Shown here in pieces: positions 8,549-30,478 of a DNA stretch of 64,000 bases. The DNA comes from Myxococcales bacterium (lineage in GTDB: Bacteria; Myxococcota_A; Polyangia; Polyangiales; DASUME01): assembly GCA_047601445.1 (NCBI GenBank), contig JASGJH010000001.1:4256001-4320000 (forward strand), written 5' to 3'. Below the pieces are notes generated by a model. It did no database searches, was not told where the DNA came from, and saw only the letters and a list, made by a program, of their open reading frames with translations. The position numbers and the translations under genes are program-made. The number at the start of each line of letters is the position of its first letter. The stretch's first letter is position 1.

Positions 8549-8707
8549 TGTATCATTTGGTCGATGCCTCCTTGAAGTGGCGGCCCCGGGCTGGACGCGC
8601 CAATGCGAGACGCCGTACACACTCGGCTGCGCAGCAGTGAGCACAGTTCTTGTCCGGCAGTCTGCTGGAAAGGTCGGCCAGGTACCCAAGCGGGCGGATT
8701 TTGCGAT

Positions 8708-10093
<1,386 letters not shown>

Positions 10094-10832: not shown

Positions 10833-11330
10833 TCAGAAGCGACTCAAGAGATAGCCGCTCGCCCCGGGCAGCTTTCCGTCGATCGCAATCGTGGCGACAC
10901 CAGGCGGCACCAGGTCCGCCGGCACGTACGTGATTGCCCCTGGTAGCGAGGCGACCACCCGCGCCGCTAGGTCCTCGGTCGGCAATGTGCGAGGCGGTTC
11001 CTGGCCGGTGCGAATGCGGCGGTCGACCCAGAATCGGCCCGCTTCGTCGGGGTCGCGACCCAGCACGATGCGGTCGAAGCGCTCGCGCAGAGGCGAGCCG
11101 GCAGGTTGATTGATCGGGATGAAGTACCTCCCGCGCGCGTACTGCGTGGAGTTTCCCTCGAAGATACTGCGGAGCTCCGACAAGCTGAGGCCACGCACCG
11201 CCTCGCCTTTGGCGACGATCACGACCAGCGGCGGCGGATGCTCGCCTTGCGCAGAGCCCGACCGAGGCCCGGGGGCCGCTCCGAGGAGCGCGAGGCTGAG
11301 CACGAATGCGATAGCTAACCTGCTTCCCAT
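10833..11330 (-). CDS. small PstS-like periplasmic protein (single-lobe phosphate-ABC substrate-binding-like)
   Basis: Signal peptide; LVVIV...LSLSELRSIF.G; FWVDRRIR.G..PP; VASLPGAITYVP; IAIDG. Confidence 0.72.
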   Translation of the reverse strand: MGSRLAIAFVLSLALLGAAPGPRSGSAQGEHPPPLVVIVAKGEAVRGLSLSELRSIFEGNSTQYARGRYFIPINQPAGSPLRERFDRIVLGRDPDEAGRFWVDRRIRTGQEPPRTLPTEDLAARVVASLPGAITYVPADLVPPGVATIAIDGKLPGASGYLLSRF

Positions 11331-11337
11331 GTTCGCC

Positions 11338-12681
11338 TCAGAATGCCAACGCTACCTGCGCCTGCAGGACGCGGAAGGTCCCTGGTCCGGTGCCCCGGAC
11401 AGTCGTTGCGTTCAGGTAGCTGGCTTTGATCGCGAGCTCGTCGAGCGGCCTCAGATTGAGACCGCCCTCGATGGTCACGACCCCAAGCTCGCCGGCAGGC
11501 CCTGGACTTTGGTTGTACTCGGTGAGCACGAAGGGCATGGTCCCTAACCAATGGAACCGATAGCCCCCGAGGAAGTAGCCCCCATAGTCCCAACTATCGT
11601 CCATGGGTGGTGGGGACATGGCACCGCCCGGCGGCGCCATGGGTCGCCCCTTATCGGTGTACTTGCGGCGTGAACCAAGCAGCTCGGTCTGCAGGTGCCA
11701 GCCGCGAAACTTCCACACCAGGTCCCCAGCCCAGCTGCCGAGGTGGAATTGGGAGCTGATCCGCTCGACGGCTGCCGGGAAGAGCCCATTCGAGGCAGGC
11801 TCGTAGATGCTGTCCGTGCTGAGTCCGTAGTATCCCGAAAGGCCGACGCGCAGCTCACCTCGAGCTCGCCTCCCCCACCATAGCCGCCCACCCACGGCCT
11901 TGTTCTCGTCGAGATCGCCATACTCGGAGATCGGCCCCGTTCCGTTGGAGAGAGTAAAATGATACCCAAGCTCGCTGCCCCCGGGAGTCTGCCAACGGCC
12001 CAACAGCTCGAGCCCAGTTTGGCGCTCGGGAAAGGAAAGCATGGTCACGAAGGGGCGCTGGACGGGTATGACGACAGGTGAGCCATGGTCGACATTCCAA
12101 ATGCCGAAGGGCGTGAGGTACTGCCCCAGACGCAAGGTCAACAGCGGGAAGATGTCCCAGTCGATGTAGATTCGCTCGATGACCACGCCTCCCCAGCGCA
12201 GGTCGCGCCCGAGCTGGTTGTAGTCTTGCACTGAGGTGCTTACACGCGTGCGGCCCAAGGGGTCCTGCGCCAGCGTTCCATTGGGGAGGTAGGTAAAGCG
12301 CACCTCGCCCAGCATCCGCAACGTGCGACTCAGCTCCTTCGCCAGGTACACGTTGAAGTTGCCGATGTAGAAGCTCGAATGGCCACCGTTGGACAGCAGC
12401 AGCCGTAGCGGACTCGACTGGGGAACGGCCAAATACGAGAAAGTGAAGTCCGTGAAGCCGCTGAGCTCAGGCGGACGCCGCAGGGGATTCTGCGTACGCG
12501 GAAACCCAAGTAGAGCGAGCTCTTCGGGTGACAACTGCTCCGACGTGGGGGAAGCGACCTTCGCGCCAGCGTCGGTGGGCTCCTGCGCCTCTGCTAACGC
12601 GCAACCCGGCGCGCAAAGAGCCGACAAGAGCAGCCACCGCAGGCCTCCCTTGCACTGCCCCCTCGAGCGGGTAAGGCGCAT
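11338..12681 (-). CDS. outer-membrane beta-barrel / porin-like protein
   Basis: Signal peptide, amphipathic strands, LGQYLTPFGIWNVDHGSP, NKAVGGR, C-terminal aromatic residue (QVALAF). Confidence 0.78.
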   Translation of the reverse strand: MRLTRSRGQCKGGLRWLLLSALCAPGCALAEAQEPTDAGAKVASPTSEQLSPEELALLGFPRTQNPLRRPPELSGFTDFTFSYLAVPQSSPLRLLLSNGGHSSFYIGNFNVYLAKELSRTLRMLGEVRFTYLPNGTLAQDPLGRTRVSTSVQDYNQLGRDLRWGGVVIERIYIDWDIFPLLTLRLGQYLTPFGIWNVDHGSPVVIPVQRPFVTMLSFPERQTGLELLGRWQTPGGSELGYHFTLSNGTGPISEYGDLDENKAVGGRLWWGRRARGELRVGLSGYYGLSTDSIYEPASNGLFPAAVERISSQFHLGSWAGDLVWKFRGWHLQTELLGSRRKYTDKGRPMAPPGGAMSPPPMDDSWDYGGYFLGGYRFHWLGTMPFVLTEYNQSPGPAGELGVVTIEGGLNLRPLDELAIKASYLNATTVRGTGPGTFRVLQAQVALAF

Positions 12682-12937
12682 TCGTGGAGGCCGACGGTAA
12701 GGTCATCGTGCGCCGGTGGCAACACCTGTTTGTTCCACCAAGCCGCGCCGTCGCTTGCTTGGCCCTGTTTGGTGCTGAGCCGCTCGCTCTTCGAAGGGCT
12801 CCTGAACGAGAACGCTCTCTTGCGCGCGTCACCGCACCTGTCGTCGCGGGGGGCAACCATGCCAGTGCGGATTCCAAGTTCCTTACGCAGGCGATCCGAC
12901 CGATCGATGCGGTAGCTTTTTCGGACGGAGGGGCAAG

Positions 12938-14695
12938 ATGCAGGCTGCGGCCACGATTCATCACACGAGTGCGACGCATAGCCCCGCGAGCAGGGATGAA
13001 AGATTCGACACGACCGAGCCTACCGACCGCGATGCGCCGCGCGTGCCGACCATCCTGCTCGCCGACGACGACCCCTCCGTGGTGGAGGCCCTACGCGAAG
13101 ACTTGGAGTCCATGCACTATGGGATCCGAGTAGCCTATAGCGGACGCGAATGCTTGGCCGAGCTGGGAGCGGGCGGCATCGATCTGGTGCTGCTCGACTT
13201 GATGATGCCAGAAGTCTCCGGGTTCCAAGTCCTGCAGTCGCTCTCGGCCAGCACGCCCTTGCGCAACCTACCCGTCGTGGTGTTGTCCGCACGCGGCAAC
13301 GATGCCGCCCGTGCCTTGAAGGCGGGCGCCGTGGATTACGTGACGAAGCCGTGGGAACCCGAGGAGCTGCTCATGCGCGTGGGGACGCACCTCAGGCTGC
13401 GCGAGCGCGAGCAGGAGCTCGCCTTGGCCGTCACACGCCTCGACCAGCGCAAGCGCGAACTGGAGAATGAAATCGTAGAGCGCAAGCGTGCCGAGGCACG
13501 ACTGGCCATGGCGAGTCGCATGTCCTCGGTCGGAGTCGTCGCCGCCGGCGTCGCCCACGAGATCAACAATCCCTTGACCTACCTAATAGGGAACTTGGAT
13601 CTCGCGCACGAGCAGCTGAATCTCCCTGCCATTCAGAAGCTCCAGATGGGTTCCGCTCCGGTTCTTCGGATGGTGGACCAAGCGCGCGAAGGCGCGGAAC
13701 GGGTTCGCCTGATCGTCCGGGACCTCAAGGCTTTTTCACGGCCCGATTCGGAAGAGCTGGAGTCCGTCAATGTCGTGGAGGTACTGGAGTCAGTGCTGCG
13801 CTTTGCCGGTCACGAGATCAAGCACCGGGCCAAGATCGAGTGGGACAGGCGGCCGACCCCCCGCGTGGTCGGAAACGCTTCGCGCCTGAGCCAAGTTCTC
13901 CTGAACATCGTGGCCAACGCTGCCCAGGCGATGGAACACGGTTCGCCAGACCGCGACGTGCTACGGGTGGAGACCTGCCTCGTTTCGATGGATTCCCAGC
14001 CAGCCGTCGAAGCGGACGTGTCCGCCCGCGCGCAGTGTTCTGACGACATGCTCGAGATCCGACTGCGAGACTCGGGCTCGGGCATGGATGCCTACACCGC
14101 TGCCCATGCATTCGACCTGTTCTATACCACCAAGACCAAGGGCACCGGCACGGGTCTCGGGCTGGCGCTGTGCCGCAAGATCGTCGAAGGATTTGGTGGA
14201 CGCATCGCGCTCCGGAGCGAGCGCGGCAAGGGAACGGAAGTGACCGTGACTCTGCGCGTGAGCCATGAACGGGACGTCGCCCCGGGAGCTACTCGTGCGG
14301 CGCCTGCGGCACCCACCTCGGAGATGCAAAAGGGGCACCTGCTGGTCATCGACGACGAGCCCGAGATCGGCGCTTTGATCATGACCTTTCTTGCCCGCCA
14401 CTACCACGTGCAAGTCGTCCATGAATCGACGGCGGCACTCAGTCTCCTCCGCTCCGGCCACCACTTCGATCTCGTGCTCTGCGATCTGATGATGACAGGC
14501 GTCAATGGCATCGATCTCTATGAGACCGTGCGACGGGAGCTCGTTGGTGGAGGCCCACCATTCGTGTTCATGACGGGAGGTCCATGCACCCAGCGAGCCG
14601 CTGCTTTCGTCAAACAGCACAAGAGCCGGGTGCTGGAGAAGCCCTTCTCACCGACTCGGCTCACGGAGACACTCGAAGCCGCGAGGAGTCACTGA
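12938..14695 (+). CDS. cytoplasmic hybrid sensor histidine kinase (REC-HisKA-HATPase-REC)
   Basis: ADDD/LLDLMMP/KPW receiver; AHEINNPL H-box; NIVANA, DSGSGM, GTGLGL; C-terminal receiver LCDLMM; GGAGG RBS. Confidence 0.92.
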   Translation: MQAAATIHHTSATHSPASRDERFDTTEPTDRDAPRVPTILLADDDPSVVEALREDLESMHYGIRVAYSGRECLAELGAGGIDLVLLDLMMPEVSGFQVLQSLSASTPLRNLPVVVLSARGNDAARALKAGAVDYVTKPWEPEELLMRVGTHLRLREREQELALAVTRLDQRKRELENEIVERKRAEARLAMASRMSSVGVVAAGVAHEINNPLTYLIGNLDLAHEQLNLPAIQKLQMGSAPVLRMVDQAREGAERVRLIVRDLKAFSRPDSEELESVNVVEVLESVLRFAGHEIKHRAKIEWDRRPTPRVVGNASRLSQVLLNIVANAAQAMEHGSPDRDVLRVETCLVSMDSQPAVEADVSARAQCSDDMLEIRLRDSGSGMDAYTAAHAFDLFYTTKTKGTGTGLGLALCRKIVEGFGGRIALRSERGKGTEVTVTLRVSHERDVAPGATRAAPAAPTSEMQKGHLLVIDDEPEIGALIMTFLARHYHVQVVHESTAALSLLRSGHHFDLVLCDLMMTGVNGIDLYETVRRELVGGGPPFVFMTGGPCTQRAAAFVKQHKSRVLEKPFSPTRLTETLEAARSH

Positions 14696-17233
14696 GTGCA
14701 CCTGCGCCGCCGCAAGCCTGGTGCCCAGGATGGCCAAGCGCTCTCACCACAAGTCCGGGGGGTGATCGCCACTGGCGTGCAGATTCGCCTGGCGATCGCC
14801 GCGATCACGATGAGCCTCGTGCTGATCTTGTCGGTGATGACCGTGTTCTCCATCGATCGGGTCTTCAACTGGTTGACGCCAATCGCCGAGCAGGACCTAC
14901 GTTGGAAGGCCGAGCGTGGACTGGTCGAGCTCCGTCGAGGTGCCGAAGTTGGGCTACTGCTGCGCGACCAGGGCCTATTGCGTGCAGCGGTGCACTCCTA
15001 CGCCCTCGATCCAGACGTCGAGGCCATCGCGGTCGAGGACCGCGCTGGCATCCAGGTTTACCGGCATGCGAAGCGTCCCTTCTCCTCCGATGCACTGTTC
15101 GCGGGGTCCTCGAACATCGTACACAGCGAGCCGGGCCGCTTGCGCTCGTGGTCGCCGATCGCGATCGAAGGGAGGACGATCGGCCGATTGGGGCTCGCCA
15201 TCTCGACGAACCGAGTGTCTGCAGGTGCCACGTTGCGTAGCCGGGTGATTTGGTCTGCGCTCGGTGTAGGCATGCTCGCGGCATTGCTTTCATTCGTGAC
15301 CGTGCGGAGCTACGTCGCGCCCCTCCTAAACGTAACCCGGAAAGCCTTCGTGGACCTCGAGCAGCGCACGAGTGAGGCGCTGGCAGCTGACCGAGCCAAG
15401 AGTCGATTCCTCGCCAACGTGAGTCACGAGCTTCGCACCCCTCTGAATGGCGTGCTCGGGATGACCCGCCTCCTCCTGCAGGGTGAGCTATCAAGCGGCC
15501 AGCGCCGACGAGGCGAGATCATCCTTCAGGCCTCGGAGAACTTGCTCGTGCTCATCAACGACCTGTTGGATGCCACGGTCGCCGAGGCAGGCCATCTGCG
15601 CCTTTCGCCCGCCCCTTGCGAGCTGCGACGCCGCGTGCAGGAACGGGCCGAATTGCTGGCGACCGGCGCGCGAAGCAACGCGCTCGACATTGCTTGCAAC
15701 ATCGCCGACGAGGTCCCCTCCGTGGTGGTCATGGATGGCGAGCGCTTCGAGCAGGTCCTGAACAATGTGCTCGGAAACGCCATCAAGTTCACCACGCGAG
15801 GTGATGTCGAAGTATCGCTGCGACTCGTCGACCCGGCGGTACCAGGACCTCAGCCCCGCCTCCACGTAGAGGTGAGCGACATGGGTCCAGGCATCGCGGA
15901 AGCAGATCAACCGAAGTTGTTTCGAGCTTTCTCCCAACTCGACACGTCTGCTTCGCGACGGCACGAGGGAACCGGGCTCGGGCTCGCCATTTCAAGGCAT
16001 CTATTGGAGTGCATGGGCGGTGAGATTGGCCTGCGCAGCGAGCCCGGGAAGGGAGCGTGCTTCTGGTTCGCGCTCCCCTGCGAGGTCTTGACTCCCGCGC
16101 CACCACCGCTGCACGGCCCTCACAGGCTTCGGGTGCTGGTCGCCGACGAAAGTGCGATGTACCGCCGCCTCGTTGGCGCCTGGTGCTCGAATTGGGGAAT
16201 GGACGTGCAGATCGTGGAGGCTGCGACCGACATTCTGCCTCTCCTTCATTCATCTCGAGCCGGTGGCAATCCTGTCTCCGTGTTGATCATTGACGCCCGC
16301 ATGGTGCGTGCGCAAGGCCCGGCGCTGCTGCAGTCCCTGGCGACCTCTCTTGCTCAGAGCTTGCATGTAATCTGCCTCGCGTCGCCGCTCGATGACGTAC
16401 CCAAGCTGCCGGATGCGTTGAGTGCCAGAGTGCTGATGAAGCCCGTGCGCCCGGAAGCCCTGTTTGCCTTGGTCACGGGCCAGGCAACCGAGCGTGTTGG
16501 CCCCCCGCCTCGGTCTCCAAGCGCAGCCCCAAAGGGCGGCAGGGTTCTGGTAGTCGACGACCACGACGTCAGCCGAGAGGTCGCTGCAGAGGTGGTGCGT
16601 GGCCTGGGCTACACGTGCGATACCGCCGAAAGCGGCAAGCAAGCCCTCGAAGCCGTGGCTCGGCTAACCTATGACATGGTCTTGATGGACTGCCAGATGC
16701 CGGAGATGACCGGCTACGAAGCGACTCGCGCGATCCGCAGGTTGCCGCAATCCGAGACAGCCTCCATCCCGATTTTGGCCCTCACGGCCCACGCGCTCCC
16801 CGAAGAGGAAACCCGGGTGCGTAAGGCGGGGATGAACGGACTGCTCACCAAACCCCTGTCACCGGAACGCCTAGAAGACGCTTTGAAGCGGCATGTGACA
16901 CCCCCCCCAGCGACCCGCGAGGTTCCTTCCCCACGGCCACGGCGCTCGGCCCGCGTGCTCGAGCTGTTTTTGCGCCCAGTTCCGGATCAGCTCCAGCGGC
17001 TCCACGTCGCCATCGAGCGTGGCGCGCTGTCGGATGCAGCCCAGGAGGCGCACCGCCTGAAAGGCGGCTCCGCGAATGTCGGGGCGATGGAATTCTCGGC
17101 TCTTGCGGCCACCCTGGAGGACGCCTGCAACCGCGGCAGCGCCGACGACGCAGACGCATTCGCGCAACACCTCGACCGCGCGTTCCCTGCACTGAAAGCC
17201 CAGATCGAGCAGGAGATCGCGGACCGCGCCTAA
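14696..17233 (+). CDS. membrane hybrid histidine kinase (TM-periplasmic-TM, HisKA, HATPase, 2xREC, Hpt)
   Basis: SHELRTPLNG, GNAIKFT, GTGLGL, LMDCQMP, Hpt AHRLKGGSANVGA. Confidence 0.92.
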   Translation: MHLRRRKPGAQDGQALSPQVRGVIATGVQIRLAIAAITMSLVLILSVMTVFSIDRVFNWLTPIAEQDLRWKAERGLVELRRGAEVGLLLRDQGLLRAAVHSYALDPDVEAIAVEDRAGIQVYRHAKRPFSSDALFAGSSNIVHSEPGRLRSWSPIAIEGRTIGRLGLAISTNRVSAGATLRSRVIWSALGVGMLAALLSFVTVRSYVAPLLNVTRKAFVDLEQRTSEALAADRAKSRFLANVSHELRTPLNGVLGMTRLLLQGELSSGQRRRGEIILQASENLLVLINDLLDATVAEAGHLRLSPAPCELRRRVQERAELLATGARSNALDIACNIADEVPSVVVMDGERFEQVLNNVLGNAIKFTTRGDVEVSLRLVDPAVPGPQPRLHVEVSDMGPGIAEADQPKLFRAFSQLDTSASRRHEGTGLGLAISRHLLECMGGEIGLRSEPGKGACFWFALPCEVLTPAPPPLHGPHRLRVLVADESAMYRRLVGAWCSNWGMDVQIVEAATDILPLLHSSRAGGNPVSVLIIDARMVRAQGPALLQSLATSLAQSLHVICLASPLDDVPKLPDALSARVLMKPVRPEALFALVTGQATERVGPPPRSPSAAPKGGRVLVVDDHDVSREVAAEVVRGLGYTCDTAESGKQALEAVARLTYDMVLMDCQMPEMTGYEATRAIRRLPQSETASIPILALTAHALPEEETRVRKAGMNGLLTKPLSPERLEDALKRHVTPPPATREVPSPRPRRSARVLELFLRPVPDQLQRLHVAIERGALSDAAQEAHRLKGGSANVGAMEFSALAATLEDACNRGSADDADAFAQHLDRAFPALKAQIEQEIADRA

Positions 17234-17259
17234 ATTCGTGAGCGGTAGGCGACTCATCA

Positions 17260-18627
17260 TTAGGCATGTTGCTGGTCATGAGTCGGAAAGGAAAGGCTCA
17301 CTCGGGTCCCCTGCCCCAACGCACTTTCGACCGACAGCGTCCCTTCGTGTGCCTCCACGATTCGCTTGGCCATCGACAGCCCGAGACCCAAGCCGCCGCT
17401 GCGCCGGCTTCGACTCCTGTCGGTGCGGAAGAAAGGGGTCGCCAGGTACGGGAGGTCTGCGGCGGCGATCCCGATTCCTCGGTCTTGCACGGCGATCGTG
17501 AGGAGTGCATCCGAGTGACGCGCAGTGAGCTCCACCGCTGAGTCCGAGTCGGAATAGGCATGCGCATTTTCGAGCAGGTTCTCCAATACCCGTCGCAAGA
17601 GCATGGCGTTGCCCGTCATGACTGGCAGCTCTGGCTCGCAATGGAACTCCAGCGTGCGCTCGGGATGCGATGCTCGGAATCTGCTGGCTGCCTTTGCGAG
17701 TAGCTGTTCCATCTCGATCTGCTCGCCGCGGAAGCGGACCAACCCTTCTCCTGCCTTTCCGAGTGCGAGATCGAGCCGTGCAGTATGGAGGACATCAGTC
17801 ACGAGTTGCTCGAGTTCCCCGAGATCCTCCGCGATCGCGGAGAGCGACTCCCGCGCCATGCTCGCGTCTCCCTCGTCTGCGAGATCGAGCGCCACCCGAA
17901 TACGGGCCATGGGCGTGCGCAGTTCGTGGGAGACATTGGCGATGAGCTCCTGTTGCGCGCGGAGCAGCTTGGCCACGCGCTCGGCCATTTCGTCGAAGGT
18001 GTTGGCGAGTTCGCCGAACTCGTCGTTGCGACGTAGCCCTACCCTGACGTTCAGGTCACCCGCGCCGAGCTTGCGCGCGGCCAGCGCCAACGCCGCAAGG
18101 GGCGCCGCGAACGAGCGCGCCAGGATGATCGAGGCAACCGCGGTCGCGATCATGGACCCGCCGAAAGCCCAAAGAAAAGCGCTTTGGAGCGGCGGGGGTG
18201 GATTGGGAAGGTAAAGCGCGTAGCCATCAACTTGCCCTTGCGTGCCGAGGGGAACCGCCACCCGCGGTGGTACGCCATCCTCGAGGTACGATGACTGCAC
18301 GCGAAGCTTGGCCAACTGTGTCGGAGCCAGGGGCGCGAGAGGCGGCTGCACATTGGAGGTGATCAAGCGCCCCTCGAAGTCGTAGACACTGACCGCCCCT
18401 CCGAGGACGCCCTTCACCCTCGCGAGCTCCCTTCCGAGCGCGTCGGGTTCGTGTAGGCGCTCCGAGATTCCCTGCACCGCGAAGAGCGCCTCACGACTGA
18501 CGATGCCGCGCGCGTGCGGGTGGACGGACTGGGAGAACGCCAAGATCAAACAGCCGAGGATCGCCACAAGCAGCGCGAGACTAAGCCCGTAGATCCGAAA
18601 GGTCAGGCGACTCAGCCGCGGCACCAT
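17260..18627 (-). CDS. HAMP-domain sensor histidine kinase
   Basis: Two TM segments, HAMP (DEFGELANTFDEMA), SHELRTPM, NLLENA, DRGIGI, GLGLGL. Confidence 0.92.
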   Translation of the reverse strand: MVPRLSRLTFRIYGLSLALLVAILGCLILAFSQSVHPHARGIVSREALFAVQGISERLHEPDALGRELARVKGVLGGAVSVYDFEGRLITSNVQPPLAPLAPTQLAKLRVQSSYLEDGVPPRVAVPLGTQGQVDGYALYLPNPPPPLQSAFLWAFGGSMIATAVASIILARSFAAPLAALALAARKLGAGDLNVRVGLRRNDEFGELANTFDEMAERVAKLLRAQQELIANVSHELRTPMARIRVALDLADEGDASMARESLSAIAEDLGELEQLVTDVLHTARLDLALGKAGEGLVRFRGEQIEMEQLLAKAASRFRASHPERTLEFHCEPELPVMTGNAMLLRRVLENLLENAHAYSDSDSAVELTARHSDALLTIAVQDRGIGIAAADLPYLATPFFRTDRSRSRRSGGLGLGLSMAKRIVEAHEGTLSVESALGQGTRVSLSFPTHDQQHA

Positions 18628-18631
18628 GGCT

Positions 18632-19330
18632 CTATCCTTCGTCGAACTGGGAGTCGCCCGCCAACATGTAGCCCGATCCTCTCACGGTCTTCAGCAGCCG
18701 CGGACGCCGCGAGTCATCGCCGAGCTTCTGGCGCAGGCGTGAGATCTGCACGTCGATGGAGCGATCGAAGGCGTCCTCTGCGTCTCCCTTCGCAAGGTAG
18801 AGCAGTCGCTCACGCCCCAGCACACGGCCTGCATGTTCGGCGAGTGCACGCAGCAGTGCGAACTCGTATGCAGTAAGGGCTAACGGACGGCCATCGAGGC
18901 TGGCACGAAGCGCCTGTGGGTCGATCAAGAGCCCACCGACACGCAGCACTTCATTGGCTGGTCCGGCCTTACCCCGAGCACGCCGCACGTGGGCCCGTAT
19001 GCGCGCGACGAGCTCACGTGACGAGAACGGCTTGGCGACGTAGTCGTCTGCGCCGAGCTCCAGCCCCATCACACGGTCCGCCTCTTCGTCGCGGGCCGTC
19101 AGAATCACGATGGGAACATCCGTGCGTGCGCGCAGCTCCTTGCACACCGAAAGACCGTCGAGACTCGGCAGCGAGAGGTCGAGCAACACGACATCGGGAC
19201 GCTCTCGGAGCGCCTCCTTCAAGCCCTGCTTGCCGTCGGGGACCCAGGTGACCTGAACCCCATGGCTCTCCAGGTAACGTGAAGTGAGCTGCGCTAAGCG
19301 CTCGTCGTCCTCGATGAACAGCACTCTCAT
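18632..19330 (-). CDS. OmpR/PhoB-family response regulator
   Basis: IEDD, LLDLSLP, GADDYVAKPF, winged helix DRSIDVQISRLRQKL...KTVRGSGY. Confidence 0.95.
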   Translation of the reverse strand: MRVLFIEDDERLAQLTSRYLESHGVQVTWVPDGKQGLKEALRERPDVVLLDLSLPSLDGLSVCKELRARTDVPIVILTARDEEADRVMGLELGADDYVAKPFSSRELVARIRAHVRRARGKAGPANEVLRVGGLLIDPQALRASLDGRPLALTAYEFALLRALAEHAGRVLGRERLLYLAKGDAEDAFDRSIDVQISRLRQKLGDDSRRPRLLKTVRGSGYMLAGDSQFDEG

Positions 19331-19514
19331 GACCAACCCTTCGAATAGTCCGCAGCTAGAGCCTGCACCTCCACAGAAGCAGCGCTCGTCTCACCATCGA
19401 CGGCAGTGATCGACGTTACTAGCCGGATTCGCTGCAGCTTCTTCATGTTGCCCAACTGTGTCGAAATGTGAACTCGCGAAGATCCGCCTCCCGAGCTCTA
19501 TACCATTTCTGAGC

Positions 19515-20306
19515 ATGCTGAATCAGGGGAGAGTCGACCAGGCGGGCCGCGTACTGGTGATCGACGACGACGAGATCGCGCTCGAGAGCATCCGCGATGT
19601 GCTCGCAGAAGCAGGCTTCCAGGTGCATTGCCTGACGTCTCCAATCGGAGCCACACAGGTGATCGTGAGCCACGGGATCGACGCGGTGGTGGTGGACCTG
19701 AACATGCCCGTCCTACGCGGAGACCGCTTCATTTCCCTGCTGCGAAGCTGGGAACGCATCCGCGACCTGCCCACGATCCTGCTTTCAGGAGCGTCCACCG
19801 AAACGTTGGAGAAGCTGGCCCAGCAGATGCCCGGCGTGCAAACGGTGACCAAGGAGAGCATGCGGCGTCTGCTGCCCCTGGCACTGCGACGAAGCATGGC
19901 CCGGGAGAGGGCGCATCCGACGTCGCTGCGCCGCGCAACGGATCTGAGCTCCGTGGAGAAGGGTGCGCTCGCGAGCGCTGCGCAAGCCAGCCTGAAAGTT
20001 CTGCTCGAAGGAGCCGCCGGACGCGAGATCCAGTGGGAGTCGTTGCTCCATACGCTGAAACTCCTGCGAGACCACGCGCAGCAGGTGGGGACGGCGCAGC
20101 TGGTCAAGCTGACCGCCAAGCTCGTTGAGGTCGGCGAACGCTGTGCCGATCGCCGGAACTTGGTGCCTGACGCACGTCTCGCGCTGCGCGGCGCCCTCGA
20201 CTTCCTCACCTGCTTGGAGGGCTCGAACGCCGGACCCCGGCTGCCCCAGATGGCGGCCGTGCATCTCTCACGCCTCGAGCGCGTCCTGGAGGACCTTTCC
20301 AAGTGA
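19515..20306 (+). CDS. response regulator with C-terminal helical (Hpt-like) domain
   Basis: VIDDD, VVDLNMP receiver; C-terminal LLHTLKLLRDHAQQVG resembles a Hpt helix; GTGA overlap with the next kinase. Confidence 0.78.
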   Translation: MLNQGRVDQAGRVLVIDDDEIALESIRDVLAEAGFQVHCLTSPIGATQVIVSHGIDAVVVDLNMPVLRGDRFISLLRSWERIRDLPTILLSGASTETLEKLAQQMPGVQTVTKESMRRLLPLALRRSMARERAHPTSLRRATDLSSVEKGALASAAQASLKVLLEGAAGREIQWESLLHTLKLLRDHAQQVGTAQLVKLTAKLVEVGERCADRRNLVPDARLALRGALDFLTCLEGSNAGPRLPQMAAVHLSRLERVLEDLSK

Positions 20307-22954
20307 CTGATACGAAGTCGACCTTGCCGGCAGGCTCTGCGGACCTGAAACACGACGCGCTTCTCCTCGAGGCCGAGCAAACGGCTCTCCTGGGAAGGCG
20401 CATCAAGCTTGGCTTCATGTGCTTTTCGAGCGGCCTCTTGCTCGCACTCTCCGGGATGATTTTCCTGATCGTCACCCAGATATTCGACTCGCTGACACCC
20501 GCCGTACAGCGCGACCTCGAGTGGAAGGCTTCTCGCGGCGCCCTCGCGCTGAGCCGCGAAATCGAGTACGGCGCCCTCACTGAAGACGCAAAGGCGCTCG
20601 CCTCTCAGGTGGCTCACTACGCCAGTGATCCCGATGTGAACGCCATCGTCGTGGTGAGCGCAACCGGAAAGCCGCTGTACGAGCGCGGCGCGACGCCCCT
20701 CACCCGGGCGGAGTTGTTCCGAGGCAAGCCCGGGGCCATCGAGCAGTCAGGCCATGCCTACTTCTCGCACGGGGATGCCGTGATCGAGGGAGTACTCGTC
20801 GGACGGGTGGCAATCGTCGTCTCGACCGAGCGCCTGCGTGCAGGAGACCGTCTGCGCAACACCGTGCTGCTCTCGGGCGCGACCGGCTGCCTCGTCGCCC
20901 TTGCCCTTGCTCTCGCCTTCGTGAGTCTGTACGTGAGCCCGTTGCTCGAGATTGTCCGCGGTGCCTTCGCCCGGCTCGCCGAGACCACGGCGCAGGCACT
21001 CGAGGCGACCCGGCTCAAGAGCGAGTTTCTGGCGAACATGAGCCACGAGATCCGCACGCCGATGAATGGTGTGCTGGCGATGACCGACATGCTGTTGCGC
21101 ACCCAGCTCGACGCGAGACAGGCCCGCTTTGCGGACGTGGTGCGAGCCTCCGCCCGCAGCCTGCTGACGATCATCAACGACATCCTGGACTTCTCCAAGA
21201 TCGAAGCTGGCAAGTACGAACTCTCACCGAGCGACTTTGACCTACGAATCCAGGTTCAGGAGACGATGGAGCTGTTGGCTCCGCGCGCCCGGGAGAAGCA
21301 GCTCGAGTTTGCCTATCGCATCGCCCCCGACGTTCCGCGTCTGGTGCGGACGGATCCCGACCGCTTCAAACAAGTGCTGACCAACCTGCTCGGCAACGCG
21401 ATCAAGTTCACCGAGAAGGGCGAGATCGTGCTGACAATCAGCGCCGCGCGACAGGAGGGATCCCAGCTCACGCTGCGCTGCTCCGTGCGCGATACAGGCC
21501 CCGGAGTCAGCCCGCAGAACCTCCTGCGCCTGTTCAGCTCCTTCTCCCAAGTCGACGGCTCGAGCACGCGACGCTATGGCGGGACCGGCCTCGGGCTCGT
21601 CATCTCCAGAAAGCTAGCGGAGCTCATGGGTGGCACCGTCACCGTCGACAGCAAGCTGGGTGAGGGAAGCACCTTCGTCTTCAGCGCGCAAGCTGTGGAG
21701 GTCTCGAAGCCAGAGGTCCACCCCGCGAGCGCCCAAGCCGGCAAGCGAGTACTGATCGTGGACGACAGCGCGTTGGTGCGTGGTCTACTCGAAGAGCAGC
21801 TAGTGTACTGGGGGATGCGCTGTGTCAGCGTGGACAGCGCCGCTGACGCCATGCTGTGTATCGAGCGCGCCCTGATGGAAGGTACGCCCTTCGACGCGGT
21901 GCTGCTGGACGCCGAACTGCCAGCACAAGAAGGGCTCGAACTCGCTCGCGCTGTCGTCACGAGCCCAATGACTCTACCGCTCGTCTTGATGACCACGGAG
22001 AGCGATTCGAACCGCCCTCCAGCGCTGCAAAGGCTGCCCACCCTCGCCAAGCCGCTGCGGGAGTCGGACCTTTTCGATCGCCTGATGGACGCGTTTCACC
22101 TCCCCCGCGGCCAGGCGCAGGGCGCGGCGATGCAGGTCGGACAACGCCGCAAACAGCTGTGCGGACGGGTGCTCGCAGTAGATGACAACGAGATCAATCA
22201 GGCCGTGGCGGAGGAGCTGCTTGCCGAACTCGGACTCGAGGCGGACGTAGTGAGCAATGGGCTCGAGGCGTTTCACGCCGTGCAAAAGCACCGCTACGGG
22301 GTCGTCTTGATGGACTGTCAGATGCCCGTCATGGACGGCTATGCCGCTGCACGCGCCATTCGCGGGTGGGAAGCGGAACACCAGGCACCACGAACGCCCA
22401 TCGTTGCACTGACAGCCCACGCTCTGTCGGGAGAGCGCGAGAAGGTGTTGGCGGCCGGCATGGACGATTACCTGACGAAGCCCATCCCGGTGCGCTCGTT
22501 GGAAGCAACGCTGACGCGGTTCTTGTCGGGCGTACCAGCACCGGTCGCACCGCTGAAGGAAGACATCAGCGCACAGGATGAACGGCGTGTGCCGCTCGTT
22601 GCCCGACCTGAGAACGACGCGACCAGTGAGCTGCTGGCGCCGGACGCGCCGCGCTCCACACGCGTCATCGAGCTCTTTCTGACACGCGTTCCAGACCAAA
22701 TTGCGGACCTCTCGCATGCCGTCGCGAGCACCGACGCGGGACGGGTCCGGTCGGTCGCCCACAAGCTCAAGGGCAGCTGCACGAGCGTGGGCGCCGCGCC
22801 CATGGCGATGCTGTGCGAGCAGATGGATCACGACGCATCGTCAGGCGATCTGAGTCGCGCGAGTGAGCGCGCAAGCAAGCTCACGACCTTGTTCTCCGAG
22901 ACGGCCCGTCTACTCGAGCAGGAGATGCAGCGGAGTAAAAGCGCGTCTGCCTGA
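20303..22954 (+). CDS. membrane hybrid histidine kinase (BarA-like architecture, 2xREC, Hpt)
   Basis: SHEIRTPMNG, LDFSKIEAG, GNAIKFT, GGTGLGL, LMDCQMP, Hpt AHKLKGSCTSVGA; periplasmic domain homologous to that of 14696..17233. Confidence 0.93.
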   Translation: MTDTKSTLPAGSADLKHDALLLEAEQTALLGRRIKLGFMCFSSGLLLALSGMIFLIVTQIFDSLTPAVQRDLEWKASRGALALSREIEYGALTEDAKALASQVAHYASDPDVNAIVVVSATGKPLYERGATPLTRAELFRGKPGAIEQSGHAYFSHGDAVIEGVLVGRVAIVVSTERLRAGDRLRNTVLLSGATGCLVALALALAFVSLYVSPLLEIVRGAFARLAETTAQALEATRLKSEFLANMSHEIRTPMNGVLAMTDMLLRTQLDARQARFADVVRASARSLLTIINDILDFSKIEAGKYELSPSDFDLRIQVQETMELLAPRAREKQLEFAYRIAPDVPRLVRTDPDRFKQVLTNLLGNAIKFTEKGEIVLTISAARQEGSQLTLRCSVRDTGPGVSPQNLLRLFSSFSQVDGSSTRRYGGTGLGLVISRKLAELMGGTVTVDSKLGEGSTFVFSAQAVEVSKPEVHPASAQAGKRVLIVDDSALVRGLLEEQLVYWGMRCVSVDSAADAMLCIERALMEGTPFDAVLLDAELPAQEGLELARAVVTSPMTLPLVLMTTESDSNRPPALQRLPTLAKPLRESDLFDRLMDAFHLPRGQAQGAAMQVGQRRKQLCGRVLAVDDNEINQAVAEELLAELGLEADVVSNGLEAFHAVQKHRYGVVLMDCQMPVMDGYAAARAIRGWEAEHQAPRTPIVALTAHALSGEREKVLAAGMDDYLTKPIPVRSLEATLTRFLSGVPAPVAPLKEDISAQDERRVPLVARPENDATSELLAPDAPRSTRVIELFLTRVPDQIADLSHAVASTDAGRVRSVAHKLKGSCTSVGAAPMAMLCEQMDHDASSGDLSRASERASKLTTLFSETARLLEQEMQRSKSASA

Positions 22955-23031
22955 TGAAGGCTCGCGAAGGGTACTTGGACGAAAGTTTTGCTCAGGTCAC
23001 GGATACCTGAGCTGAAGTGGGGAGGGACAAC

Positions 23032-23460
23032 GTGATGATGTGGTGGGCGCGACCCCTGGCTGGGGTCGTTTGGGTTGGGTGCGCTTGCGCGTGCCTCTAC
23101 GACGCAGACAACCGTTGCGGATCGCACCAGGTGTTGATCGACGACAGTTGCGTGTGTGAAACCGGCTACGCGCTGGAGGGCAACGCCTGCGAGATGCAGC
23201 CTCGAGCGGGCGTCGGAAACGACGCGGGAACAGGGGGCGACGATATAGCGTCGCGCTATACGGGCCAGAAGGAGCCCTGCGCTGCCGACGCTGACTGTGC
23301 AGACTTCGACGCCACCTTCTGCGACACGCGGAACAACTACTGTGTGGTGCCAGACTGCATGGACGGGAGCTGCGACCAGGGCTGGACGTGCACGGACCTG
23401 TCCGAGTTCATGCCGGGCTTGCCCAAGGTTTGCACCTTCGACGCGGACCGGCCGTCATGA
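23032..23460 (+). CDS. Cys-rich (EGF-like) putative lipoprotein
   Basis: GGAGG RBS, hydrophobic N-terminus ending CACAC, CVCETGY..C EGF-like motif, many cysteines; ATGA overlap with the porin gene. Confidence 0.7.
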   Translation: MMMWWARPLAGVVWVGCACACLYDADNRCGSHQVLIDDSCVCETGYALEGNACEMQPRAGVGNDAGTGGDDIASRYTGQKEPCAADADCADFDATFCDTRNNYCVVPDCMDGSCDQGWTCTDLSEFMPGLPKVCTFDADRPS

Positions 23461-24809
23461 CGCGGAATCCGCGCACATGGACGACTGTTCGGCGAGTCGG
23501 ATGCGCTCTCATGTGCCTCGGGTTGGCGGCGGCCGAAGCGCCAGCGTCGGCACAGGACGTTCGAGCGTCGCAAGCACCGGAGCCCCCGCCTGCAGGGGTG
23601 ACCAGCGAGGACCAAGCAGCGCTCGACACGCTGCTCGACGACGACTCGAGCGCTGAGAGTGAGCGTCCGAACCTTTCGCTCTACGGCTTCGCGGACGCCT
23701 CGGTCGAACGGATGTACTCGACCGGCAAGGGACCGAGCCTCGCAGAGTCGCCCGTCTTCACTGTGGGCAACGTCAACGTGTACCTGGCCAGCAACCTCAC
23801 GCACGGTTTCTCGAGCCTGATCGAGGTTCGCTTCTCGTACTTGCCCAACGGGACGGCCGGAGCGTCTGGCAGCTACGAGACGACCAGCGCTGCGGACTCG
23901 GCCAACTTCGGGCGCACGGAGCAGTGGGGAGGCATCGTCTTGCAGCGCGTGCACCTCGACTACAGCTTTCGCGGTTGGCTCAACGTGCGCGTCGGTCAGT
24001 TCCTGACGCCTTATGGGATTTGGAACGTGGACCACGGCAGCCCCACCATCATCGGCACCAACAAGCCCTACGTGGTCGGCGATGGCCTCTTCCCGCAACG
24101 TCAAACGGGCCTGGAGGTGTTTGGCTCCCGGCTATTCGGCGCTACGACCCTGGGCTATCACGTCACGGTCTCCAACGGCCGCAGCGACGTCCTGAACTCC
24201 GATTTCGACAAGAACAAAGCCTTGGGTGGGCGCCTGTTCTTGGCGAGCGATGCGATCGGCGCGTTCAAGCTTGGTGTCTCGGCATATGGGGGTCGCGCCA
24301 CCATGCAGCCCTACTCAGGGCTCGACACCACGTCGACACCTCCCTTGCCGGCCAAGCTCTCGGACAATCAGTACGACGAGCTAGCATTGGCAGGAGACCT
24401 TCAGTGGGATCTCGGGAACCTGCATCTGCAGGGGGAAGGCATCCTGCGTCAGGTTCGCTATCTCGAGGCAGGCCGCAAGACACAGACGGACTTCACCGGG
24501 GCACTCACGGGTCTCGTGCCCGACAACCTGCGCTGGGGTTGGTACGGCCTCGCGGGATATCGTCTACCGTGGCTCGCCGCGATGCCCTTCGTCTTGGTGG
24601 AGCAAAATTGCGGAATCGCCGGCAGCAGTCCGACTGGCGCGTTCTTCGATCCTGCAGGCCGCATTCTCACGCTCACGGGCGGACTCAACGTGCGGCCGGT
24701 ACCGAGCGTGGTGTTGAAAGTGCAAGCGACCTGGATCAAGCCCCCGGCCGACGGGCCAGGGGCCGGCTCCCTAACGGCCGTTTCCGGCCAGGCAGCGTGG
24801 GCATTCTAA
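23457..24809 (+). CDS. outer-membrane beta-barrel / porin-like protein (paralogue of 11338..12681)
   Basis: Signal peptide; shared motifs GNVNVYLA, EVRFSYLPNG, GQFLTPYGIWNVDHGSP, NKALGGR; ends QAAWAF. Confidence 0.78.
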   Translation: MTRNPRTWTTVRRVGCALMCLGLAAAEAPASAQDVRASQAPEPPPAGVTSEDQAALDTLLDDDSSAESERPNLSLYGFADASVERMYSTGKGPSLAESPVFTVGNVNVYLASNLTHGFSSLIEVRFSYLPNGTAGASGSYETTSAADSANFGRTEQWGGIVLQRVHLDYSFRGWLNVRVGQFLTPYGIWNVDHGSPTIIGTNKPYVVGDGLFPQRQTGLEVFGSRLFGATTLGYHVTVSNGRSDVLNSDFDKNKALGGRLFLASDAIGAFKLGVSAYGGRATMQPYSGLDTTSTPPLPAKLSDNQYDELALAGDLQWDLGNLHLQGEGILRQVRYLEAGRKTQTDFTGALTGLVPDNLRWGWYGLAGYRLPWLAAMPFVLVEQNCGIAGSSPTGAFFDPAGRILTLTGGLNVRPVPSVVLKVQATWIKPPADGPGAGSLTAVSGQAAWAF

Positions 24810-25324
24810 TGCGATTTTTTTTCCACATCCTCAAGGCAACCATGCTCGGCCTCGTGGTCATCACGCTGGTGACCGATGGCTCCCTCGCGCTCGCATCGGC
24901 CCAGCCGACAGTGAGTGGACCGACGCCCCTGGTCGTGATCGTATCCGCTCGTTCGGGCATCCACGATCTACCTAAAGCTCTGCTGAAGCGCATTTTCCTG
25001 GGCGAAGCCTCCGAGTACCAAGGCACACGCTTCGTTCCTCTCAACTACGTCGTGAGTGACCCGGTCCGTCGCGCATTCGACGAGATGCTGCTGGGTTTTG
25101 CCGGCGATGCGGCTGGTCGGTACTGGGTCGACCGCCGCATACGCGGACAGGGGCTCCCCCCACGGATCGCCCCGTCGAGTGCCGTCGTGCGCGTCGCCGT
25201 GGCCAAGCTCCCCGGAGCCATCGGCTACGTGCGTCCCGCGGACCTGGATGCGTCCGTGCGCGCGGTGACCGTGGATGGCTTGCCATACACGGCGGCAGAC
25301 TACGCGCTGCGGGCCTCGCGCTAG
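24809..25324 (+). CDS. small PstS-like periplasmic protein (paralogue of 10833..11330)
   Basis: TAATG overlap; MRFFFHILK signal, LVVIVS, LKRIFLG, YWVDRRIRGQGLPP, VAKLPGAIGYV, VDG. The ORF track extends this frame upstream to 23924 as a shadow. Confidence 0.75.
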   Translation: MRFFFHILKATMLGLVVITLVTDGSLALASAQPTVSGPTPLVVIVSARSGIHDLPKALLKRIFLGEASEYQGTRFVPLNYVVSDPVRRAFDEMLLGFAGDAAGRYWVDRRIRGQGLPPRIAPSSAVVRVAVAKLPGAIGYVRPADLDASVRAVTVDGLPYTAADYALRASR

Positions 25325-25373
25325 GCAAACCGCGCGGTCAAGGCTGTCAACGAAAGAAGGTCGGGCGGACACG

Positions 25374-26327
25374 ATGGCGGACGCTCAACGCGAGCACACA
25401 TCGCTACTATTCAGCTGGCTACCTCGCGCGCTCACGAAGCCTCAGGAGCCGCCGACCTTACGGAACCCGCTGCTGGAGAGTCGTATGTTCGTGTCGACGC
25501 TGGTCGTGAAGGGGATCGCGACCGAACTTCAACGGCATGGTCACGACACCTCGGCCTGGCTGCGTCGTGCAAAGCTCGAGCCCCCTGACTCGCCTGGCGC
25601 GCCGACCCATATAGACGTCCGCGCGTGCGCCGACCTCGCCGAGGAGGCCGCGCGTGCTCTCGATGATCCCGCTCTCGGTCTGACCATCGCGTCGCGAGAG
25701 CACGCGTTCACCTTTCATTTGCTCGGCTACATGCTGCTGTCGTCTCGCAATCTTCTCGAGGCATTCAGGCTGTGCCAGAAATACTCCTGCCTCGTCATGG
25801 ACAATCTGCGGTTCGAGGTGGTGGATCTCGGTGCGCGCACTCATCTTCGTTTCGAGGTGCTCGCGGCCGGCGACTCCGCGTTCGCTCATTTTTGCGAAGA
25901 TCTCACGGTCGCGCTCGTCTATCGCTTGATCATGCACCAGGTCCCAGGCGCACCAGCGCCAGAGGTATGGTTGAGCCGCCCACGGCCCGATCGAACTGCG
26001 CGCTATCACGAGCTCTTCTCGGGCCGGGTGCGCTTCGGAGCAAGTCGCTGCGAGGTCCTCGTCGCGCGGGACCTTCTGGAAATCCGGCAGTCCCACGGTG
26101 ACCCGCACGTTCTCGAGTGGCTGAAGAAAGCTGCCGACGCGGCTCTTCTACGGGACCGTTCGGCCGTGTCCACCATGACCGAGCGGGTGCGAATGGTGCT
26201 TGCGAAGGAACCTGACGGCCGCACGCCGCTTGCCCACGAGAATCGCTGCCCAGCTGGGTGTCGGCGCGCGCGGGCTCCGGAGGCACCTTCGCGACGAAGG
26301 GAGCAGCGTTCGAGCTCTTCTCGATGA
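25374..26327 (+). CDS. AraC-family regulator, ligand-binding part (frameshifted before the HTH)
   Basis: LDDPALGL, LLGYMLLSSRNLLEA, YHELFSGRVRFG; frame drifts after LAKEP (~26210). Confidence 0.8.
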   Translation: MADAQREHTSLLFSWLPRALTKPQEPPTLRNPLLESRMFVSTLVVKGIATELQRHGHDTSAWLRRAKLEPPDSPGAPTHIDVRACADLAEEAARALDDPALGLTIASREHAFTFHLLGYMLLSSRNLLEAFRLCQKYSCLVMDNLRFEVVDLGARTHLRFEVLAAGDSAFAHFCEDLTVALVYRLIMHQVPGAPAPEVWLSRPRPDRTARYHELFSGRVRFGASRCEVLVARDLLEIRQSHGDPHVLEWLKKAADAALLRDRSAVSTMTERVRMVLAKEPDGRTPLAHENRCPAGCRRARAPEAPSRRREQRSSSSR

Positions 26328-26538
26328 ACATCGCATGCGAGCCGCCCGCGCCATCCTTGCGATGCCCAATACGACCGTGAAGGAGACCGCCGAGCGCCTC
26401 GGCTACTCGGAGCCGAGCGCCTTCCACCGTGCATTCAAGCGGTGGACCGGCTCGACCCCCCACGACTTCTTGATTGCGCAGCGCGGGCATGGCGCCCCCC
26501 GTCCCCTGGAGCCCGGGCGTCCGAGCCCACTGCTCTAG
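26200..26538 (+). CDS. AraC HTH part of the frameshifted regulator
   Basis: IAAQLGVGARGLRRHLRDEG...AERLGYSEPSAFHRAFKRWTGSTP. Confidence 0.8.
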   Translation: MRRNLTAARRLPTRIAAQLGVGARGLRRHLRDEGSSVRALLDEHRMRAARAILAMPNTTVKETAERLGYSEPSAFHRAFKRWTGSTPHDFLIAQRGHGAPRPLEPGRPSPLL

Positions 26539-26673
26539 GCCAGGCGGCATCTCGCGAAGGAACACTGTTCAGGCGCCTGTCACGAGTCCGTGCGCCCAGT
26601 GTCATTCCATCAAACGAGAGTAGCGGGCAATGTCCCCGTACCTGCTCCGGCACCACGCTCCAAGGAGTCTCGG

Positions 26674-28245: not shown

Positions 28246-28300
28246 AACCGGTCGGCGTGGCGCCGAGTGTATATCCGGCGTGGCGTCAGGTTGGGACCCG

Positions 28301-29185
28301 TCAAAGATCCGCCTGGCGGAAGTCGCTCGCGCCCGTCGGCTTCACGCTGAGGAACGGCTTGTACCGCGAATCACCCACCAGGTAGACCTCTAGCCACGAC
28401 AGACCGAAGCGCCCGATGGCACCACTTTCGTTGGCGGGATCGTTTCCGACCCAGTGATCGCCATTTTCCACCTGATAGATGAGGCGAGGATTGGTTTCCA
28501 TGCTGTCGTACATCGGCTGCGACTGCCCCCCTGCCAGATTGTCGATGGGAGCGTTTCCCCCGGCGATGAGCATGCATGGGACTTTCATCGCTGGAAACGT
28601 GAAGGTCCCCCAGGAAGCAAGACCGACGGCTGCCTTGAGCTCGGGATGTTCGCTGGCTGCAAGCAGCGCTCCACCTCCACCCATCGACCAGCCCATCACG
28701 CCGAGGCGTTCAAGATCCAACTTGCCCTGGAGAGGACTCTGGTCGCGGGTTTGCTCCGCCCTGACGGTTTCCAGCGCATCGAGCAGCGCCTCCTTCCGTT
28801 CGTCGGGGAAGTCCGTCGTAGGGTTGTTGGTGCCGATCGTGATGGCCACGATCCCATGGGAGGCTAGAAAAGGGCCCCAGTCAGCGATGTCGCCTTCGCT
28901 CGACGCAAAACCGGGAACGATCGCCACCGCGGCAAAAGGCGGCGTGCCGTCTTCCGGATACCACATGGTCTGCGACCCGTAGTCGGGGCCATCGCGCAGC
29001 CCCTCCGCCTGGCCGTAGCTCCTCACGGCGAGCATCCCCATCCTGCTCGCCGAAATCGCGGTTGGTCCCTCTTCCGTCGATGCGTCCACAACCTCATGTC
29101 CCATCGCCGGCAGACTGCCGGGCGGATCACTGCCGCAAGCAAGGAGAAGTAGTGAAGTGAGAGAGGGCAATGGTGCTGGTCGCAA
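28301..29185 (-). CDS. PETase/cutinase-like (dienelactone-hydrolase fold) lipoprotein esterase
   Basis: LLLAC lipobox; AIVPGF, WGPFLASHG, GVMGWSMGGGG, LASW, PID, NGDH, GDSRY; collinear with bacterial polyester hydrolases as I recall them. Confidence 0.85.
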   Translation of the reverse strand: MRPAPLPSLTSLLLLACGSDPPGSLPAMGHEVVDASTEEGPTAISASRMGMLAVRSYGQAEGLRDGPDYGSQTMWYPEDGTPPFAAVAIVPGFASSEGDIADWGPFLASHGIVAITIGTNNPTTDFPDERKEALLDALETVRAEQTRDQSPLQGKLDLERLGVMGWSMGGGGALLAASEHPELKAAVGLASWGTFTFPAMKVPCMLIAGGNAPIDNLAGGQSQPMYDSMETNPRLIYQVENGDHWVGNDPANESGAIGRFGLSWLEVYLVGDSRYKPFLSVKPTGASDFRQADL

Positions 29186-30437: not shown

Positions 30438-30478
30438 GACACCTCCAGCGCCCGTCCGCTGCACACCTCGAGATCTGA

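Follow-up and report, generated by a model that had tools for sequence, protein, structure and literature searches.

A 64,000-nucleotide stretch of the genome of a Myxococcales bacterium (hereafter the window; assembly GCA_047601445.1, contig JASGJH010000001.1, positions 4,256,001 to 4,320,000) carries, between positions 10833 and 25324, two copies of a gene cassette for an OprP-like porin (the barrel) and a one-lobe protein of the PstS fold (the mini periplasmic binding protein, mini-PBP). We found that in this clade the two genes are encoded and inherited together with a third, for a cysteine-rich lipoprotein, and that this triad is linked to transducers with two transmembrane helices and a CHASE8/Cache-like periplasmic domain (the sensor domain). 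The initial annotation of the sequence had proposed a three-part relay of barrel, mini-PBP and hybrid kinase. The two barrel/mini-PBP pairs and the two hybrid kinases with a histidine phosphotransfer (Hpt) domain on which it was built are all present, six genes in all, with the motifs quoted for them. The linkage stands and a contact between mini-PBP and sensor domain is weakly predicted, but the lipoprotein had been overlooked, the kinase is variable and some genomes lack the sensor. Thus the lipoprotein is a fourth part of the cassette; lipoprotein, barrel and mini-PBP are its constant core in this clade, and the kinase is its variable part. The cassette is real and uncharacterised, although the logic of trans-envelope signalling is itself already known. 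No literature describing it was found, as judged by titles and the starts of abstracts in a search that left most subscription papers and supplements outside.

The linkage was surveyed around the best 80 of 267 barrel matches, which come from about 68 named genomes and are biased to close relatives, mostly Polyangiaceae and other Myxococcota. Around these 80 barrels we found a mini-PBP gene at 76, the sensor domain at 35, any signalling domain at 47 and an ATP-binding cassette (ABC) ATPase at 5. The lipoprotein was found at 68, not more than 1.6 kb from the barrel; its profile, which matched 69 open reading frames (ORFs) in the 1.07 Mb of these loci, was trained on the same loci in which it was counted. 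Where at least 5 kb of sequence was available on both sides (42 loci), the mini-PBP was present at 40, the lipoprotein at 39, the sensor at 20, any signalling domain at 27 and PstC at none. Divergence between barrel and lipoprotein (correlation 0.73) and between barrel and mini-PBP (0.57) runs in parallel; correlations of this kind stem from a common history and do not indicate contact.

The same association was seen from the sensor side, where one or more triad genes were found on 20 of the 36 metagenome contigs, most of them short, and on 4 of the 9 longest. The initial annotation expected barrel, mini-PBP and sensor families to co-occur in other genomes, and they do: among 251 genomes of the order, 28 contain both barrel and sensor, 4 the barrel only, 5 the sensor only and 214 neither, and the corresponding numbers in one family of 77 genomes are 12, 1, 3 and 61. 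In these counts kin are not independent, and 7–16 candidates per genome were scored. The lipoprotein profile matched in 15 of the 251 genomes; with 12 candidates per genome scored it missed one of the six copies in the source genome, and it was not used for co-occurrence. The mini-PBP occurs in 20 of 151 genomes of a phylum sample. Of 19 more distant mini-PBP loci (a count that leaves out G109, one of the 21 non-self matches, and the fusion locus L025 described below), 16 have a barrel match and 15 have a membrane kinase or a methyl-accepting chemotaxis protein (MCP) within about 4.5 kb, with varied sensor domains; the lipoprotein was matched only at L006, which belongs to the close clade, and at none of the other 18. 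By these locus surveys, barrel plus mini-PBP is the widespread core, and the lipoprotein, seen so far only with this myxobacterial barrel clade, and this sensor subfamily are a myxobacterial elaboration.

Searching the whole 9.5-Mb source genome by tblastn revealed seven barrel/mini-PBP pairs and five kinases with this sensor domain. All five kinases, all seven mini-PBPs and six lipoproteins lie at the seven barrel loci. The lipoprotein profile recovered six ORFs at an expectation value (E) below 1e-18, each of them at a barrel locus, and the match after these had E 0.015; only copy 1 of the window has no lipoprotein beside it. At locus L001 no membrane sensor is present. The two window copies share 36–39% identity in their barrels, 39–42% in their mini-PBPs and 37% in their kinases. 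The nearest relative of copy 2, locus L002, lies some 50 kb off and shares with it 62% identity in the barrel, 75% in the mini-PBP, 56% in the lipoprotein and 68% in the sensor; copy 1 is closest to L004. The module had been described as duplicated, but because of this low identity and the nearer relatives elsewhere the two copies are old paralogues, and a local duplication is ruled out. In the kinase at L004 (L004:9000-11660, ~6121000-6123658) the reading frame appears to shift just after the H-box, owing to an indel in the assembly or to a real break in this copy.

The barrels and mini-PBPs of the window gave no Pfam match (E 0.1). Modelling places the barrel in the OprP-like porin fold: the AlphaFold model of barrel 2, with a predicted local distance difference test (pLDDT) score of 67 from a 7-row alignment, is best matched by OprP (2o4v; Z 24.4, root mean square deviation 3.3, 288 aligned) and matches general porins with Z 19–22. 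The barrel profile found no sequence relative in the PDB, and 17 of 94 family members touch Pfam Porin_O_P. Invariant Arg and invariant acidic residues are both kept in the family. The mature mini-PBP, of about 135 residues, aligns to about 130 of the 240–320 residues of PstS. The model of mini-PBP 2 has a pLDDT of 92.5 and its Foldseek matches to PstS have template-modelling scores of ~0.7 by query (TMq) and ~0.4 by target (TMt); the family profile matches PstS structures at E 2e-10 with one lobe covered, and homologues match Pfam PBP_like_2. Look-alikes in the ESM Atlas include clusters from Acidobacteriota and Pseudomonadota. A search for the mini-PBP fused within longer proteins gave one match (P0171), an apparent read-through into the neighbouring gene and weak evidence. 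At L025 (L025:8015-10273) a Ser/Thr kinase and a full-length PstS-like binding domain form one fusion protein.

The residues of the motif N-R-x-x-G-S-G-T/S-R bind phosphate in E. coli PstS. In the mini-PBP family this motif reads N-[HYLQ]-x-x-x-S/T-P-E/D-R, so that the Arg and Gly-Thr are replaced and only the Ser/Thr of GSG is retained (77 of 96 rows); in 74 of the 96 the Thr site is acidic. Trp, Arg and Pro are invariant in an insert specific to the family, and the family also has a basic loop of its own, YWIDRKIRG..PP. It can be asked whether the cassette is an OprP/PstS-derived system of phosphate (oxyanion) uptake or sensing that still handles phosphate, as the best fold matches, the members touching Porin_O_P and the retained Ser/Thr would allow. 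The mini-PBP is, however, half the size of PstS, a single lobe with an altered motif. Linkage to pstCAB, which the initial annotation had named as a contrary outcome, was not seen: the PstC profile matched at none of the 80 barrel loci and at none of the 25 loci L001–L025. Two canonical pstC loci lie elsewhere in the source genome, and the PstC-like match nearest to any of the seven copies is 217 kb away. As already noted from the sequence, no ABC permease or ATPase accompanies the PstS-like genes, since the ABC-ATPase and PstC profiles were empty over the 64-kb window. We consider a phosphate role very unlikely.

The lipoprotein consists of an N-terminal domain resembling epidermal growth factor (EGF), a linker and a Cys-rich C-terminal domain. 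Its alignment omits 7 of 83 rows with an uncertain start, truncation or redundancy (L078, L080, L109, L111, L119, L121, L122), and the start of L002 was shifted to its CLYD cysteine. All 77 aligned members begin with Cys, commonly as C-[VL]-Y-D, and all 77 have an odd number of Cys, with nine different values from 11 to 31, which fits one lipidated Cys and full disulfide pairing of the remainder. The length is modular (113–231 residues). Position +2 is most often V, L, T, A or I, with neither Lys nor Asp among the common choices, and inner-membrane lipoproteins of M. xanthus tend to carry Lys at +2 (PMC3222651). The lipoprotein is therefore likely to sort to the outer membrane, as far as its +2 position predicts. 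Pfam matches in the family are sporadic, leads in the ESM Atlas (Dickkopf-N/DUF7107-like) are all under 0.9, and a search for fusions within longer proteins found none, which is weak evidence. Loci without a lipoprotein are scattered over several places in the barrel tree, a quick tree without bootstrap, and so do not form one subtype. Three loci (L029, L060 and L079) have lipoprotein and barrel without an adjoining mini-PBP despite 5.8–8 kb of downstream sequence, and L063 has two lipoprotein–barrel pairs in tandem followed by one mini-PBP.

Such a lipoprotein might itself be the partner of the kinase across the periplasm, as RcsF is of IgaA, leaving the mini-PBP as a porin plug or chaperone. 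Its likely sorting to the outer membrane, its disulfide-rich chain of modular length and a divergence correlation with the sensor (0.27) slightly above that of the mini-PBP would suit this arrangement, and OmpA and IgaA compete for RcsF (PMC7553776). We nevertheless think it improbable, since barrel, mini-PBP and sensor occur without an adjoining lipoprotein in copy 1 of the window and at L047, L068, L083 and L136, and since the 18 distant loci with transducers or barrels have no lipoprotein match.

The hybrid kinases of both copies have two transmembrane helices, an H-box, N and G boxes, a pair of receivers and the His of an Hpt domain. The initial annotation had regarded their periplasmic domain as shared and distinctive. 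It is indeed common to both (35–36% identity), but by its sequence it belongs to a CHASE8/Cache-like subfamily and is not a unique fold. Of 70 members, 32 match CHASE8 at E<=0.05, the best at 3.1e-7; as these scores are weak, we regard the domain as a related subfamily of CHASE8. Its profile also matches PDB 5o7j ('Histidine kinase'), which we take to be the periplasmic domain of GacS, at E 6e-4. The domain has 268 relatives at 50% clustering, and the 54 of 150 listed relatives that were scanned end in a histidine kinase, a hybrid histidine kinase, a CheA-like kinase or SpoIIE/PP2C. A separate receiver-only ORF is found at 25 of the 35 sensor-bearing loci.

Other copies of the cassette adjoin an MCP or a NIT-domain sensor instead. 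The most divergent barrel/mini-PBP/lipoprotein copy of the source genome (L003:1100-11400, ~4556000-4566400) stands at the head of a chemosensory cluster that includes MCP, CheA-REC and CheB/CheR-like genes, and at L099 the triad lies upstream of CheW and MCP genes. At L036:4077-6734 and L090:2613-4562 it stands beside membrane sensors with a NIT domain (a nitrate/nitrite-sensing family) and a CheA-like or PP2C output. A frequent barrel/mini-PBP partner, seen at L016, L018, L021 and L023 and in proteins such as P0113, P0120 and P0126, is a CheA-like membrane kinase of the layout sensor-(HAMP)-Hpt-HATPase, without HisKA.

To predict contacts, three chains of copy 2, namely mini-PBP, lipoprotein and sensor domain, were co-folded and the sensor was scored as the partner. 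The score was 0.40 (runs 0.24, 0.46 and 0.40), against 0.00 for the best of three controls, with contacts at least 95% consistent between runs and a partner pLDDT of at least 84. When the lipoprotein was kept and the mini-PBP was replaced the score was 0.00; the predicted sensor contact therefore depends on the mini-PBP. Of 157 solved complexes used for calibration, 116 reached the mark, as did 2 of 215 mismatches, figures that hold only roughly for a three-chain job, and the range up to 0.60 contains 18 of the solved complexes and both passing mismatches. Thus an interface of the kind called for by the initial annotation is predicted between mini-PBP and sensor, though it gives the contact weak support. 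Because the contact was already likely from linkage, the prediction raises its probability modestly, and part of the score could come from resemblance to solved binding-protein/sensor complexes.

We lean slightly towards a mechanism in which the mini-PBP shuttles between a porin–lipoprotein complex and the kinase, as in YfiBNR or PahS-PahP-PahK but with different protein families. The cassette would then act as an input line reserved for membrane signal transducers. Porin and lipoprotein would form a receptor complex of the outer membrane, and the mini-PBP would dock on its periplasmic face, probably by the basic loop. A cue other than phosphate, arriving at porin or lipoprotein, would shift the mini-PBP between the porin and the periplasmic domain of the kinase and so switch kinase activity, and a His-Asp-His relay would hand phosphate to the neighbouring receiver-only protein. 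A relay that ends on such a protein suggests control of behaviour or of an enzyme rather than direct control of transcription.

Several observations weigh against such a shuttle. The complete genomes of Sorangium So ce56, So ce1000 and So ce375 contain the triad and no match to the sensor domain (all candidates were scored in one pass, 150 of 220–247 in the other), and in the two Sorangium genomes inspected no membrane sensor lies beside the triad. Of the 42 well-flanked loci, 22 have no sensor domain and 15 no profiled signalling domain at all, and many triads stand alone among unrelated genes. In four genomes with a stand-alone triad the sensor is encoded elsewhere, which fits action in trans and does not show it. 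The divergence of mini-PBP and sensor is correlated at a Spearman coefficient of only 0.15 (n=42, permutation p 0.023). The same mini-PBP family occurs beside the unrelated NIT sensors, which one conserved interface explains poorly.

The triad could accordingly be a self-contained unit of outer-membrane uptake or gating, either a regulated output of the signalling genes or just their co-regulated neighbour, while the kinase responds to a ligand of its own without any contact with the mini-PBP. The loci and genomes without a sensor and the weak correlation between mini-PBP and sensor agree with this, as do L008, L011, L012, L014 and L019, where barrel and mini-PBP lie beside an oppositely oriented pair of histidine kinase and NtrC/OmpR regulator, a usual layout of regulator and target. 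A regulated output is harder to reconcile with the close-clade kinases, whose partners at those 25 of 35 loci are receiver-only, without DNA-binding output. Moreover, linkage to the triad follows the sensor domain while the outputs vary (histidine kinase, PP2C, CheA-like), barrel and sensor co-occur at the level of genomes (28/33), no conserved inner-membrane transporter is nearby (the 5 ABC ATPases among 80 loci) and a contact of sensor and mini-PBP is predicted, with weak support. We hold the self-contained unit to be rather unlikely.

We also consider, as an unlikely but specific version of receptor function, that the porin displays its EGF-like, disulfide-rich lipoprotein at the cell surface, where the latter serves as receptor for a large or contact-borne cue such as prey, kin or a surface; the signal through the porin would free a ligand-free half-PstS adaptor onto the matching kinase. 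If so, predatory myxobacteria would possess insulated receptor lines from the outside to the cytoplasm, up to seven per cell.

The cassette belongs to none of YfiBNR, PahS-PahP-PahK and PstSCAB/OprP. The likeness to YfiBNR drawn in the initial annotation holds, and PahS-PahP-PahK is a further experimental precedent that already exists (PMC10570129). YfiBNR of Pseudomonas aeruginosa likewise combines an outer-membrane component, a soluble periplasmic protein and a PAS/CHASE8-type transducer with two transmembrane helices, YfiR binds the PAS-like periplasmic domain of YfiN, and distant homologues have modular outputs (histidine kinase, MCP, Hpt) (PMC3375315). In the cassette kinases, too, a PAS/CHASE8-type periplasmic domain lies between two transmembrane helices. 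On the other hand, the outer-membrane part of the cassette is a porin and a Cys-rich lipoprotein, not a Pal-like protein, neither having an OmpA-family Pfam match, and its periplasmic protein is a PstS lobe without a match to the YfiR family. The window kinases have neither HAMP nor GGDEF, and GGDEF was not among the outputs in the scanned relatives of the sensor domain. The Phe of the AAVVF site of YfiN presumably stands two residues before the Asp; the sensor family has no such Phe, the column two before its conserved Asp being V/L/A/T/I in 69 of 70 rows.

In Cycloclasticus, the PahS-PahP-PahK-PahR genes likewise cluster an outer-membrane barrel, a binding-protein-like periplasmic component and a histidine kinase, and PahP is reported to shuttle from the barrel PahS to the kinase PahK (PMC10570129). 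PahS is a 687-aa, 22-strand TonB-dependent receptor and PahP is of full size (>250 aa) in that account, whereas the cassette has a barrel of about 380 residues best matched by 16-strand porins, a one-lobed candidate shuttle and an additional lipoprotein. For a PstS-fold protein that stimulates a receptor, PstS-CtpL is a precedent (PMC8050422). RmSBP resembles the mini-PBP in being a one-lobe binding-protein fold encoded beside an MCP, with no function described in the accessible text, but it resembles the C-terminal lobe of amino-acid-binding proteins and that text mentions no porin or lipoprotein (PMC10805632). The mini-PBP profile matched PstS structures, not RmSBP entries. Pfam showed no RcsF homology in the cassette lipoprotein. 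The Rcs pathway ends in a hybrid-kinase phosphorelay. Outer-membrane lipoproteins that work with beta-barrels are also known from RcsF with its outer-membrane proteins and IgaA-RcsCD (PMC7553776) and from the myxobacterial CglB-GltABCHK (PMC9946355), and in the accessible accounts neither has a half-PstS shuttle or a porin dedicated to each kinase.

The features of the two copies are listed in Table 1. In copy 2, overlapping stop and start codons join receiver to kinase 2, and lipoprotein (ATGA) to barrel and mini-PBP. In copy 1, barrel and mini-PBP are transcribed away from kinase 1 with the soluble kinase gene intervening; a similar REC-HK-REC gene (HK, histidine kinase) is present at the lipoprotein-less loci L047, L051 and L136.

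Table 1 Features of the two cassette copies in the window.
Feature	Position	Strand	Remarks
Mini-PBP 1	10833..11330	-	hydrophobic N-terminus, predicted signal peptide, and one PstS-type lobe
Barrel 1, porin-like	11338..12681	-	LTPFGIWNVDHGSP loop, C-terminal Phe; no adjoining lipoprotein gene
Soluble REC-HisKA-HATPase-REC kinase	12938..14695	+	divergent from barrel 1, abuts kinase 1; no transmembrane segment
Hybrid kinase 1	14696..17233	+	transmembrane-sensor-transmembrane-HisKA-HATPase-REC-REC-Hpt; BarA/GacS-like layout
Periplasmic CHASE8/Cache-like domain, kinase 1	14855..15253	+	
HAMP histidine kinase and OmpR-type regulator	17260..19336	-	between the two cassettes
Receiver protein	19458..20306	+	C-terminal domain without known family; overlaps start of kinase 2 (GTGA)
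Hybrid kinase 2	20303..22954	+	layout as kinase 1
Periplasmic CHASE8/Cache-like domain, kinase 2	20474..20872	+	
Cys-rich lipoprotein	23035..23460	+	lipidation predicted on the Cys at 23092; mature chain with 13 Cys
Barrel 2, porin-like	23457..24809	+	Ala/Pro/acidic N-terminal extension
Mini-PBP 2	24809..25324	+	start overlaps stop of barrel 2 (TAATG)

The HAMP-kinase/OmpR pair is absent from the paralogous locus L002 and is probably not part of either cassette. The C-terminal domain of the receiver protein (19940-20306, ~120 aa) was seen in this protein and its paralogue at L002 only, and gave neither a Pfam nor an Hpt-profile match. Downstream of copy 2, an AraC-type regulator (25275-26538; Arabinose_bd) has its helix-turn-helix in another frame near 26200, possibly owing to a sequencing indel, and on the other side a Ser/Thr kinase-ATPase-type gene (4795-8689) is represented by two ORFs that overlap (7199-8689 and 4795-7215) and may have been split by an indel. 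The flanks (8708-10093 and 26590-32553) encode several alpha/beta hydrolases that are secreted or lipoproteins, as well as lipoproteins with Asp-Gly repeats.

Few systems are known in which a soluble periplasmic shuttle connects the outer membrane to a kinase, and the parts found here, a barrel of the general-porin type, half a PstS and a lipoprotein, differ from theirs. The cassette plugs into kinases, phosphatases and chemosensory arrays, and its seven paralogues in one genome allow cognate and non-cognate specificity to be compared. If the proposed mechanism is true, it would give a function to widespread genes whose current annotation, as porins and phosphate ABC substrate-binding proteins, is mistaken, and would provide a candidate route of surface sensing in myxobacteria.

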